This document shows, one piece after another, positions 55,809 to 58,028 of a stretch of DNA of 64,000 nucleotides. The position numbers and the translations under genes are program-made. Location: contig JBDRJD010000008.1 in the NCBI GenBank assembly GCA_043815245.1, forward strand, positions 163 through 64,162, written 5' to 3'. The stretch is from an archaeon. GTDB lineage: Archaea; Nanobdellota; Nanobdellia; Pacearchaeales; GW2011-AR1. The notes beneath the pieces were generated by a model. The model had not been told where the DNA came from and searched no databases. It saw nothing but the letters and a program-made list of their open reading frames with translations. How positions within the stretch are numbered: position 1 is the first letter of the stretch; every line of letters starts with the position of its first letter.

Positions 55809-55830
55809 GAAAAATAGTAATATTAGCGAT

Positions 55831-55838
55831 ATTTAAAC
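55831..55838 (-). promoter_or_regulatory. TATA box (GTTTAAAT on the minus strand) for the HIT/hppA transcription unit
   Basis: Centred about 26 nt upstream of the HIT ATG (55808). Same spacing as at least six other genes in the window. Confidence 0.45.
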
Positions 55839-55842
55839 TTTT

Positions 55843-56310
55843 TTATACACAAACTAGGGGCTCTACAGTAAATATAGGTAAGATTTCCTCAGAATCTTCT
55901 CCACCTTCTATTTCATAAATGTCAAAAACAATCAATTTTTTATAACCAATCAAGTCCCGGGAAATAGCAAATGCATGCAAATCATACTGCTTGCCAGGAA
56001 TAATTTCAGGAATATGCTTGCTAGAATCCCTTGAAAGCTCTCCTTTTATCGCCTCACCAAATAAGTCAGTAATATCAAACTCTCTTTTAGGATGGAAATT
56101 CTCAAAATAAATATTATCAAGAGAGATTGCACTAAAAGGAGTTTCTGATAAAAAAGAGTAATTTCTCTTTAAATCTGCAATACCCTCTACCTCCCACCAC
56201 CTTATTGCATTAGCAACTTCCCAATCTTCGCACCCAAGAACTTTGGCCATATAAACATCGTCTACTCTTCTCCCCGCTTCATAATCAAACTCCCCAGTTA
56301 TATCTCTCAT
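55843..56310 (-). CDS. Hypothetical protein, last gene of a four-gene operon
   Basis: 155 aa. ATGA overlap with the upstream AsnB-like gene. No recognisable motif. Confidence 0.5.
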   Translation of the reverse strand: MRDITGEFDYEAGRRVDDVYMAKVLGCEDWEVANAIRWWEVEGIADLKRNYSFLSETPFSAISLDNIYFENFHPKREFDITDLFGEAIKGELSRDSSKHIPEIIPGKQYDLHAFAISRDLIGYKKLIVFDIYEIEGGEDSEEILPIFTVEPLVCV

Positions 56311-57125
56311 TTTATATCATCAAACGCAGAAACCAGTCCATATTTTCTTCGTTCTATTATTTCCTTAATAACTCCATTTCTTTCTGCTATTTCATAAATT
56401 GGCTTTTTTCTATTTTCTTCATCAACTAATTCATCAATTCTAAACGCACTTGCAGCTTCCATAACTCTTTGAGAACCATAAGGTAAGTAAACTTTTATGC
56501 CAAAATGCGAGCTCATCTTATCTGATATTCCAAGATGATTTTCAATTAATCTTCCCATATCTTGTTTTAATTTTTCTCTACTTACTTCAGGATCCGAAGA
56601 TCTATGGCTATAATATCCCCCCATTAACTCATCAATAACATCGCAACATATCACCTTATCTGTACCTTCAGACAAAATTTTCATTAACATATAATAATTA
56701 TCAGGCCTATCCATATTAGCTCTTAGTATTTCATTTGAAGATCTTATATCTTCTTTAATGACTTCAGTAAAATGTAAAGTATGCCCTAAATTAATATGTC
56801 TTTCTTTTAGTTCTCCAAAAAATCTCTTAGCATAAACCATATCTGGATGTTCTTCATTTATTGCAAGTGTATGGGCTACCACTAAATCGGAAGTTCTAAT
56901 TTCTCCTAATAATCTAACTAAAATCAAAGAAGAATCAACTCCTCCTGAAAAAGCTAAATGAACTTCTCTTTCTTCTTTTAAAATTTCTCTGCAAATCTCA
57001 TTTACAGAACTATTAATTGCTCTTTCTAATGAATCAATTTTACTCTTATAACTTTTTTCAGAAACATTTGCTTCAAACTGATAATTCCTTATTCTCTCAA
57101 ATAATTCATCCTTTCCTACTATCAT
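56307..57125 (-). CDS. Asparagine-synthetase-like PP-loop ATP pyrophosphatase without a glutaminase domain
   Basis: 272 aa. PP-loop VHLAFSGGVDSSLI. AsnB C-domain-like CCDVIDELMGGYYSH and KVYLPYGSQRVMEAA. Confidence 0.65.
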   Translation of the reverse strand: MIVGKDELFERIRNYQFEANVSEKSYKSKIDSLERAINSSVNEICREILKEEREVHLAFSGGVDSSLILVRLLGEIRTSDLVVAHTLAINEEHPDMVYAKRFFGELKERHINLGHTLHFTEVIKEDIRSSNEILRANMDRPDNYYMLMKILSEGTDKVICCDVIDELMGGYYSHRSSDPEVSREKLKQDMGRLIENHLGISDKMSSHFGIKVYLPYGSQRVMEAASAFRIDELVDEENRKKPIYEIAERNGVIKEIIERRKYGLVSAFDDIK

Positions 57126-57372
57126 TCCTAGCTCCTATCACCCCACTTTCAACATGCCATCCTCCTTCCAGACACTCCTCGCTAAATTCTACTTTAACTT
57201 CCTTCTTCTCAAAGTCGTGTCCAATAGCTTCCTTCTTATCAATTTTATGCTTCCCACACTTACAGTGTTCAATCGAATACTGTGCATCTTCATGATCTCC
57301 ACCACAGTGATGAACTTTATGTCCTTCATTTTCATGATGCACATGATGAAACAATTCTAGTATCTCTCCCAT
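57106..57372 (-). CDS. His/Cys-rich miniprotein (putative metal-binding)
   Basis: I prefer the ATG at 57372 (88 aa), 1 nt after the upstream TGA. It has 12 His and 4 Cys (FHHVHHENEGHKVHHCGGDHED..EHCKCGKH). Confidence 0.5.
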   Translation of the reverse strand: MGEILELFHHVHHENEGHKVHHCGGDHEDAQYSIEHCKCGKHKIDKKEAIGHDFEKKEVKVEFSEECLEGGWHVESGVIGARNDSRKG

Positions 57373-57373
57373 T

Positions 57374-57994
57374 TCAATTTCCTTTTGAAATATAATGCTC
57401 AAACGCTTTTATAACTGCTGCATGAATATTATCTGCCAGCGCTTCATACTCTTCGTAAGTTGGGAAAAAATCATACTCTATCTTACTCCCATTTACTGAA
57501 AAATCAGATAAATTTGCTATCTCTGGTTCAAACCTCGACCCTTTGTAAATTTCCTGAACAGCTTCAACATTCCTATCATTCATTGCAAGAATCAAACCAG
57601 AGTCTGGCCTCACAACCATTTGCTTCATAGGCTCACTCAGCGCCTTTAAACTCTTAGCACCTAAAACCCTCTTTACACACCCCCATTCATACTCAAAAGC
57701 CTGCTCAATGGCTAATAAAGAAGCTTTATCATTTTCAGCTTTTACAGCTTCAATTAGCTTACTATCTAAAGCCTGAGTACTTACTCCTCTATCAAGGTAA
57801 GGTAATAAAAATTCTCTAGCTGCTTGGGGATCTTTCATTGACTTCTGCGCATCTAAAGCTCTAGAACCACTTGAACTTAGCCTTACTCCTACAAGCTGCT
57901 TATATCTTACTTTTACATCCCCTCCAATAGCTTCAGCTATAATGCTCCTGCAAACATTAGCTGAACAAGCAAACTCAACATCTGTGATAACCAT
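57374..57994 (-). CDS. Low-molecular-weight phosphotyrosine phosphatase/ArsC-fold protein
   Basis: 206 aa. N-terminal C-X5-R-S P-loop FACSANVCRSIIAEAI. Confidence 0.6.
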   Translation of the reverse strand: MVITDVEFACSANVCRSIIAEAIGGDVKVRYKQLVGVRLSSSGSRALDAQKSMKDPQAAREFLLPYLDRGVSTQALDSKLIEAVKAENDKASLLAIEQAFEYEWGCVKRVLGAKSLKALSEPMKQMVVRPDSGLILAMNDRNVEAVQEIYKGSRFEPEIANLSDFSVNGSKIEYDFFPTYEEYEALADNIHAAVIKAFEHYISKGN

Positions 57995-58028
57995 ACTCGT
58001 GACATAAATTATACGTATTTAAAGCTTA

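Follow-up and report, generated by a model that had tools for sequence, protein, structure and literature searches.

AsnB-family enzymes are a recurring source of amide and lactam chemistry, giving rise to asparagine, beta-lactams, lasso peptides, hydroxamates and sugar amidines, and some homologues, such as the lasso cyclases, act on peptides. Here we describe a gene pair related to this family in a 64,000-nt stretch of contig JBDRJD010000008.1 (referred to as the window) from a DPANN-type archaeal genome, a 0.92-Mb assembly that is 86% complete. The pair, g2 and g3, lies within a block of four minus-strand open reading frames (ORFs), g1-g4, that was read from the ORF list and the sequence of the window (positions 55843-57994). 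The product of g3 is a predicted AsnB-type synthetase domain lacking a glutaminase, and that of g2 a small protein rich in His and Cys; a g2-type gene accompanies g3 at every locus examined, in archaea, bacteria and viruses.

The closest described relative of g3 is the C-terminal synthetase domain of AsnB and human ASNS (PF00733; PDB 1ct9, 6gq3, 8sue). The two share the PP-loop SGGxDS, a D/E-x-x-DE-x-x-GGY strand, a C-terminal R-x-K and, in prediction, the fold (query TM-score, TMq, of about 0.70), and presumably also the carboxylate-adenylation chemistry. However, g3 has no N-terminal nucleophile (Ntn) glutaminase domain at all, comprises about 270 residues compared with about 330 for the AsnB C-domain, carries Asp in place of E348, does not keep the T322/T323/R325 and D384/R387 positions, and always comes with a His/Cys-rich partner gene.

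Precedent for a polypeptide substrate is provided by the lasso-peptide cyclases (McjC-type), which are likewise AsnB-family adenylating enzymes encoded beside a small protein, with interdependent components. Unlike g3, lasso cyclases are about 500-600 residues long and retain a degenerate N-terminal domain, and neither a transglutaminase-like B protein nor a PqqD-like RiPP recognition element (RRE; RiPP, ribosomally synthesized and post-translationally modified peptide) is found in the neighbour Pfam lists of any g2/g3 locus. Whereas a lasso precursor consists of a leader and a variable core, g2 is a predicted folded protein, rich in metal ligands and conserved from end to end. Beta-lactam synthetase (BLS), CarA and the hydroxyamidotransferase TsnB9 (PDB 1jgt, 1q15, 7ylz), AsnB homologues repurposed for intramolecular or unusual amide formation, are the next-best structural matches of g3 (TMq 0.57-0.68), but they keep the N-terminal domain, use small-molecule substrates and belong to secondary-metabolite clusters, of which there is none at g3. 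Finally, NH3-dependent NAD+ synthetase (NadE) and LarE resemble g3 in being single-domain PP-loop proteins of about 250-280 residues with no glutaminase, and give weak sequence and fold matches; their similarity to g3 is nevertheless far below that of AsnB (TMq 0.3-0.4), the scores fall far under the NCBIfam cut-offs, and neither needs a small His/Cys-rich partner.

g3 encodes a predicted stand-alone AsnB-type synthetase domain

The g3 protein displays the PP-loop SGGVDSS (residues 60-66), CCDVIDELMGGY, DELMGGY, RKKP and RRKYGLVSA. Among 31 aligned homologues, S60, G61, G62, D64 and S65 of the PP-loop are invariant, as are the RKKP and RRKYG motifs; M1 is also invariant and I2 nearly so, which confirms the start of the gene. 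From this start (MIVGK), only 50 residues precede the PP-loop, leaving no Ntn glutaminase domain with a Cys at position 2. In Pfam, g3 matches Asn_synthase (PF00733; E 1.4e-12) and no glutaminase domain. Within NCBIfam it is nearest to the asparagine synthases and far under every cut-off, scoring 50 bits against TIGR01536 (cut-off 267) over profile positions 219-377 only, i.e., the synthetase half. A profile search of the PDB matched ASNS and AsnB. The AlphaFold2 (AF2) model has a pLDDT of 95.2, and its top Foldseek matches are the synthetase domains of human ASNS and E. coli AsnB (E 1.8e-8, TMq 0.70), followed by CarA, BLS and TsnB9 and, distantly, by LarE and NadE. Pfam, NCBIfam and the predicted fold thus all bear out the preliminary description of this DNA, made from its letters, which took g3 for a stand-alone AsnB-type PP-loop domain without glutaminase. 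The family is small; 41 homologues were collected, and a search of 5.8 billion proteins yielded homologues in about 40 clusters.

When the g3 profile is aligned with 1ct9, D162 of g3 stands opposite E348 of E. coli AsnB, and D165-E166...G170-Y171 stand opposite D351-E352...G356-Y357. T322/T323 and D384 of AsnB have no counterpart in the g3 profile, lying in insertions relative to it, and the columns opposite R325 and R387 are variable. We take T322, T323, R325, D384 and R387 to be the residues that recognise aspartate and beta-aspartyl-AMP, and E348 to be catalytic. Because these aspartate-recognition positions are not kept, we conclude from the alignment that the substrate of g3 would not be free aspartate; by its motifs and model, g3 otherwise looks like a catalytically competent adenylating amide synthetase.

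Several other identities were considered. Scores and active-site positions rule out a canonical asparagine synthetase, and NCBIfam scores are far too low for LarE (22.5, cut-off 150), NadE (13-14, cut-offs 255-313), TilS (12.8, cut-off 606) and argininosuccinate synthase ArgG (15, cut-off 512), with no NCBIfam match to QueC. QueC and the tRNA-thiolation enzymes had been named in advance as examples of well-characterised families to which g3 might belong; it is neither, nor is it LarE or NadE. In one European Nucleotide Archive assembly, the g3 orthologue (L018:5272-6072) is interrupted by a single in-frame stop; at the affected position, codon 99, the Logan-derived protein P0005, which matches it otherwise, has Glu. 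A pseudogene, a difference between strains or a mistake in the assembly could each account for this.

g3 is strictly linked to g2-type genes

Fourteen g3 loci, drawn from assemblies, species genomes and one 335-kb viral contig, have enough flanking sequence to judge their neighbourhoods, and in all 14 a g2 homologue adjoins g3. The flanks otherwise vary (ribosomal proteins, alanyl-tRNA synthetase, 2-oxoacid:ferredoxin oxidoreductase, Mre11/Rad50), and an all-against-all comparison of flanking ORFs found no gene family besides g2 recurring across the loci. The functional tie between g3 and the His-rich protein, suspected earlier from one locus, therefore holds wherever g3 was examined. Scanning metagenomes with a g2 profile identified 79 loci in which a g2 ORF was called, of which 6 are too short and 73 long enough to judge. 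A g3 gene lies within 3 kb in 51 of the 73, arranged as g2>g3 (32 loci), g3>g2 (13), divergently (5) or convergently (1); the remaining 22 (30%) have no g3 despite sufficient room. Several of the metagenomic g2 loci are bacterial, judged by adjoining SmpB, MurB, bacterial EF-Tu and LeuRS genes.

The g3 tree falls into two clades with 100/100 support. In the archaeal clade, which includes the window and the 335-kb viral contig, the order is always g2>g3 and the genes always overlap (stop to start, -8 to -31 nt), which suggests coupled translation; the second clade has mixed arrangements and includes bacterial contexts. The tree requires at least five changes of arrangement while the adjacency to g2 persists, and g2 and g3 distances are correlated (Mantel r 0.61, a value reached by 0 of 2000 permutations). 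The distribution of the module is sparse and patchy: among 400 other high-quality genomes sampled evenly from the phylum, one carries a true g3 orthologue and two carry g2. Full-text searching of the literature found no paper on the pair. No third gene recurs with it except, in 8 bacterial contigs that are close relatives of one another (L114, L117, L121, L122, L127, L128, L143, L144), one for a protein of about 103 residues (..LDKIKDS..N.LRRLGYSF..DYPRFH.Y...LH.DQKK.SY.G..AHSGEY..) without a Pfam match, which is encoded immediately 3' of g2 or g3. In two bacterial loci (L155:2112-4296 and the locus of P0037) murB directly follows the g2/g3 pair, a faint hint of a link to cell-wall precursors from too few loci to weigh.

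Distant relatives of g3, also glutaminase-less, are present in tailed-phage contigs (24-35% identity, 230-260 residues). In 14 of 14 such phage loci a partner gene of about 100-240 codons with a degenerate g2 core stands beside g3: directly upstream in 12, downstream in 1 and apparently fused to the upstream protein in 1. The partner motif reads YLIHHI[HE], then, after 6 to 10 residues, [LIV]HHC, followed by DHLGN.Y.I.H and H.[IL].GL. In L069, L070, L076-L081, L066 and L067 the pair is flanked, by Pfam assignment of its neighbours, by a portal or MuF-like gene on one side and by prohead protease and capsid genes on the other. When cellular and phage partners are aligned, only L-x-HH, HHC, Y32, H36, H73 and G77 are universal; the additional Cys/His ligands and E75 belong to the cellular type, and no Asp, Glu or Lys is conserved between the two types. 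The extreme C-termini of the phage partners are strongly conserved (..IPC..RQL or ..GMT.K.K.K.W). An N-terminal domain of the L070 partner (KKF.DRCMS...YPD..QR.AVC...W; similar in L078 and L079) also forms the N-terminus of the S78 prohead protease of L069.

g2 appears to represent a new and modular His/Cys-rich domain family

As the preliminary description had counted, g2 has 12 His and 4 Cys in 88 residues. The family core of about 72 residues holds about 12 His and 4 Cys, i.e., about 16 potential metal ligands. Some 43 homologues were found among the 5.8 billion proteins and aligned; 17 columns are invariant (H9, H10, H12, H21, H22, C23, G24, G25, H36, C37, C39, H42, H52, F63, C67, W72, E75), and conservation runs from end to end, with variable C-terminal tails of 1-11 residues in the cellular g2 proteins. 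The AF2 model is beta-rich, with a pLDDT of 71. g2 has no family match in Pfam, NCBIfam, PHROGs or PADLOC; all 43 members searched against Pfam gave transmembrane-helix artefacts only, the best E-value of a PDB profile search is 1.4, and Foldseek searches of the model against the PDB and BFVD (best E 1.3 and 0.4) returned no fold match. By these searches, g2 is a new domain family that belongs to no described Pfam family or PDB fold. HNH-like, zf-CHC2-like, cytidine-deaminase-like and class-I glutamine amidotransferase-like identities, weighed by eye from the g2 motifs, were all dropped: no profile supports them, g2 is too small a domain, and the phage partners do not keep E75.

A profile search of 1.84 billion representatives retrieved 77 relatives of g2, some of them fused to other domains: zf-MYND (P0111, P0115, P0122, P0137, P0156), topoisomerase IB (P0139 and P0114, the latter with SET too) and the class-I methyltransferase domain Methyltransf_23 (P0135, P0143). 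In a 435-kb IMG/VR viral contig (L063:4992-6063, shared with L153), a g2-family gene overlaps by 23 nt the gene of a DnaG-type primase core (DNAG_N and Toprim) that lacks the usual N-terminal zinc-binding domain, for which the g2-family protein may stand in. In L017 and L119 the g2 gene overlaps a P-loop kinase gene. Together with the loci that have no g3, these cases suggest that g2 is a promiscuous module able to work without g3, whereas g3-type enzymes are never seen without g2.

Three further observations concern the g2 family. P0121 joins the domain to a region in which a JAB-like HxH...S..D motif was seen by eye only. The MYND fusions, which are GC-rich and found on contigs as long as 264 kb, may stem from a eukaryote or a giant virus. 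One archaeal subclade (L012, L014, L015, L019 and many metagenomic members, about 125-137 residues) carries an N-terminal transmembrane helix followed by a Lys/Arg-rich linker, an arrangement by which the His/Cys domain would be anchored to the membrane on its cytoplasmic side.

A proposed role for the g2-g3 pair and its alternatives

Our preferred reading, a tentative one that we place a little below an even chance, is that g2 binds metal and serves as the adaptor or specificity subunit of an amide synthetase that uses ATP to act on a macromolecule. In such a system, g3, a minimal N-type ATP pyrophosphatase of the AsnB type, would be the catalytic part and would adenylate a carboxylate (R-COOH + ATP -> R-CO-AMP + PPi), after which an amine or ammonia would attack R-CO-AMP to yield an amide. 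As the obligate partner, g2 would bind a metal, probably zinc, dock on g3 through the universal N-terminal core (L-x-HH ... HHC ... Y-x-I-x-H ... H-x-x-x-G), take the place of the missing AsnB N-terminal domain, and recruit or present the substrate, most likely a macromolecule. The products of g1 and g4 would stand outside this mechanism, merely sharing the transcript in this genome. A physical g2-g3 complex, metal binding by g2, its adaptor role and the nature of the substrate are what we infer here from sequence and predicted structure; that g2 and g3 act together physically is argued by the asymmetric dependence of g3 on g2, the likely coupling of their translation and their co-evolution.

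Several observations weigh against this proposal. For obligate subunits, it is a little surprising that not one g2-g3 fusion was seen among about 120 family members. Confidence in the g2 model is only moderate, with pLDDT values of about 50 for residues 11-30. With a mean K+R-D-E of -2, the g2 core is not basic, which disfavours nucleic-acid binding, and the primase case is a single contig. The transmembrane helix of some g2 proteins is odd for an adaptor that targets DNA or RNA. Moreover, His-dominated ligand sets are commoner in catalytic or transport metal sites than in structural zinc sites.

Another explanation, which we consider somewhat unlikely, is that g2 is itself the protein substrate or a covalent carrier of g3. 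As a carrier, the H22-C23 dyad of g2 would receive, as a thioester, the acyl group of a carboxylate adenylated by g3; as a target of modification, a g2 residue would be amidated or cyclised by g3, giving a lactam like that made by lasso cyclases, or an Asp/Glu amide. That g3 never occurs without a g2-type gene, while g2 sometimes occurs without g3, is the asymmetry expected of an enzyme and its dedicated substrate, and the lack of fusions fits as well. HHC is the most conserved element over all partner types, the conserved extreme C-termini of the phage partners recall a modified tail, and the lasso cyclases show that AsnB homologues can act on peptides. Yet cellular and phage partners have no conserved Asp, Glu or Lys in common, the cellular tails are short and variable, the g2 domain is fused to unrelated enzymes and stands alone in 30% of the loci, no lasso-type protease or RRE is found nearby in the loci examined, and we know of no thiol loading by AsnB-family enzymes. 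Whole-length conservation, stand-alone and fusion occurrence and the missing shared carboxylate or amine residue together argue that g2 is not a RiPP-like substrate. For a RiPP precursor in the strict sense, a leader and a hypervariable core would be expected, and g2 was rejected as such on the 22 of 73 loci without g3, the fusions and the conservation along its whole length; lasso-peptide biosynthesis was likewise rejected, with no adjacent protease or RRE and with the 17 invariant columns distributed throughout g2. The earlier suggestion of a small-protein or peptide modification system is accordingly weakened: the small protein does belong with the synthetase, but it is, by prediction, a folded modular domain, conserved throughout, which is found in the absence of g3 too and as a fusion with other enzymes.

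A further alternative, decidedly unlikely in our estimate, is that g3 is an ammonia-dependent amide synthetase for a small molecule, with a NadE-like or Asn-like product, and that g2 serves as its metal cofactor or as a subunit activating ammonia or another nucleophile; the pair would then patch a metabolic gap in host-dependent cells and their viruses. The size and architecture of g3 are indeed like those of NH3-dependent NadE, bacterial-clade g3 members give weak NAD_synthase matches (Pfam 6e-8; PDB 3fiu, 4e-5), the hosts are metabolically reduced organisms of the candidate phyla radiation (CPR) and DPANN, and the ligands shared by all partners, of the His5Cys type, resemble those of a catalytic metal site. 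The rarity of the pair (g3 in 1 and g2 in 2 of the 400 other genomes, and none in the 40 nearest) is, however, unlike that of a core metabolic patch, the aspartate-binding positions of AsnB are not kept, the phage pair lies between portal and prohead protease rather than amid metabolic genes, and g2 fusions to topoisomerase IB, MYND and SET are hard to fit.

Returning to g2 as an adaptor, a wider and more speculative extension, which we hold to be unlikely, is that g2 is a new metal-binding targeting domain found on enzymes that act on macromolecules (primase, topoisomerase IB, SET and class-I methyltransferases, kinase and the g3 ligase), and that g2-g3 constitutes a previously unknown ATP-dependent amide-forming modification system for protein or nucleic acid. 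If so, this modification system would be common to CPR bacteria, DPANN archaea, the 335-kb viral contig and tailed phages, and in the phages it would belong to the head-morphogenesis module between portal and prohead protease. Whatever its role, the pair comprises a stripped-down AsnB-family member with an obligatory partner from a domain family in no database, kept together through several rearrangements in two domains of life and their viruses. Identification of the substrate would give a function to a module present in CPR and DPANN, the microbes that are least understood, and in phage head-assembly modules, and would also define a new, predicted metal-binding domain present on DNA enzymes too.

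The four-gene block in the window

The four genes and the two promoter-like elements that bracket them are as follows.

58016-58023, minus strand: TATA-box-like TTTAAATA, 22-29 nt 5' of the g1 ATG, found by pattern search.
57374-57994, minus strand: g1, divergent low-molecular-weight (LMW) phosphatase-fold protein of 206 aa, identified by ORF and Pfam LMWPc.
57106-57372, minus strand: g2, His/Cys-rich protein of 88 aa counted from the ATG, identified by ORF and homologue alignment.
56307-57125, minus strand: g3, glutaminase-less AsnB/ASNS-type synthetase domain of 272 aa, identified by ORF, Pfam, NCBIfam and AF2.
55843-56310, minus strand: g4, acidic ORFan of 155 aa, identified by ORF and codon usage.
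55830-55837, minus strand: second TTTAAATA element, 22-29 nt 5' of the ATG of the downstream HIT gene, found by pattern search.

The three junctions read in the sequence exactly as first described: g1 and g2 are separated by a 1-nt spacer (TGA-A-ATG), g2 and g3 overlap by 20 nt, and g3 and g4 share an ATGA. An alternative, longer g2 ORF would start from a TTG at 57402 and overlap g1. Codon-usage log-odds exceed zero solely in the annotated frame of each gene (g1 +0.45, g2 +0.31, g3 +0.46, g4 +0.41). The TTTAAATA element 5' of g1 is the probable promoter of a leaderless g1-g4 transcript, and the one before the HIT gene marks the putative start of the next transcription unit and hence the downstream boundary of the block. 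Pattern search found no such box inside the block, and boxes at both ends with none between fit a single leaderless archaeal transcript. Over the whole window the motif shows no enrichment (31 found, 25 expected), so the promoter argument is one of position alone.

That the four genes make up a single pathway acting on one small protein or one metal, as the preliminary description proposed, is highly improbable and contradicted by comparative genomics, for although the genes are tightly coupled, bracketed by TATA boxes and uniformly native in codon usage, g4 has no homologue anywhere searched, g1 homologues are missing from about 150 g2/g3 loci and have a PEP-utilizer neighbour of their own in 6 of 6 loci, and this genome encodes a homologue of that neighbour on a different contig. 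The quartet, whose co-conservation across archaeal and DPANN genomes had been set as a check, was met nowhere else: it was not found in 40 relatives, in the 400 phylum genomes or in 159 fetched loci (g1 and g4 by tblastn). In the 40 nearest genomes, one of them of the same genus, g1, g3 and g4 were not found; as these genomes are 61-98% complete, this is to be read as not found rather than absent. The flanking membrane pyrophosphatase and 223-aa protein were not found in the same-genus genome G001 either, so that no synteny comparison for an insertion could be made there, and PADLOC and PHROGs searches of the locus proteins gave nothing meaningful for a defence-system or phage-family assignment. 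On this comparison, the functional unit would be the g2-g3 pair, not the quartet. As no homologue of g1 or g4 occurs in any g2/g3 locus, both are seemingly local passengers of the transcript in this genome, and genome annotation should not read them as part of the system.

The preliminary description called g4 unrecognisable, and it remains so: it matches nothing in Pfam, NCBIfam, PHROGs, PADLOC or the PDB, is the sole member of its family among the 5.8 billion proteins and clusters searched, and was not found in the 40 closest genomes or, by tblastn, in the 159 fetched g2/g3 loci. Given its native codon usage in the annotated frame only, g4 is probably a real, lineage-specific gene.

Other observations

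Two genes at viral loci of the pair carry what seem to be intein-like inserts. On the 335-kb viral contig (L065:1628-3772) a nucleotide-sugar dehydratase-like gene is seemingly interrupted in this way, as is a large gene 5' of the phage pair in L073:175-2514, with a 'CFHPDTDIMT...' block.

The phosphatase P-loop attributed to g1 from the outset is confirmed by its motif CSANVCRS (C10-SANVC-R16-S17), a C-X5-R-(S/T) signature at the N-terminus, and by a Pfam match to LMWPc (PF01451) just above the cut-off (E 3.1e-5; 24.6 bits, cut-off 23.2), which spans only positions 1-47 of the 144-position profile, its N-terminal third. Matches to PtpA and YwlE in the PDB are weak; as regards the DP(Y) general-acid loop, a weak second stretch sets YDFFP opposite DPYY of PtpA. 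With these LMW protein tyrosine and arginine phosphatases g1 shares the N-terminal C-x-x-N-x-C-R-S P-loop, but it differs from them in its length (206 residues, with an insertion of about 60), in matching the first 47 profile positions only and in the partners of its relatives. Its only three Cys (10, 15 and 106) do not have the spacing of the three-Cys relay of ArsC. No g1 homologue was found by tblastn in the roughly 150 g2/g3 loci among the 159 fetched.

Distant full-length relatives of g1 (26-31% identity, about 210-250 residues, P-loop shared) occur in 7 of the 400 genomes of the phylum. At all 6 loci inspected, which are DPANN loci (L055-L060, e.g., L059:143-2148), the relative, with a P-loop of the form CTGNxGRS, directly adjoins a protein of about 360-470 residues that ends in a PEP-utilizer mobile domain, a phosphohistidine swivel domain; the two genes are on the same strand in five loci and on opposite strands in L056. 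The homologue of this neighbour in the present genome is at G000:C44:34909-35553. The g1-family protein and the PEP-utilizer-domain protein may constitute an undescribed phosphotransfer/phosphatase pair.

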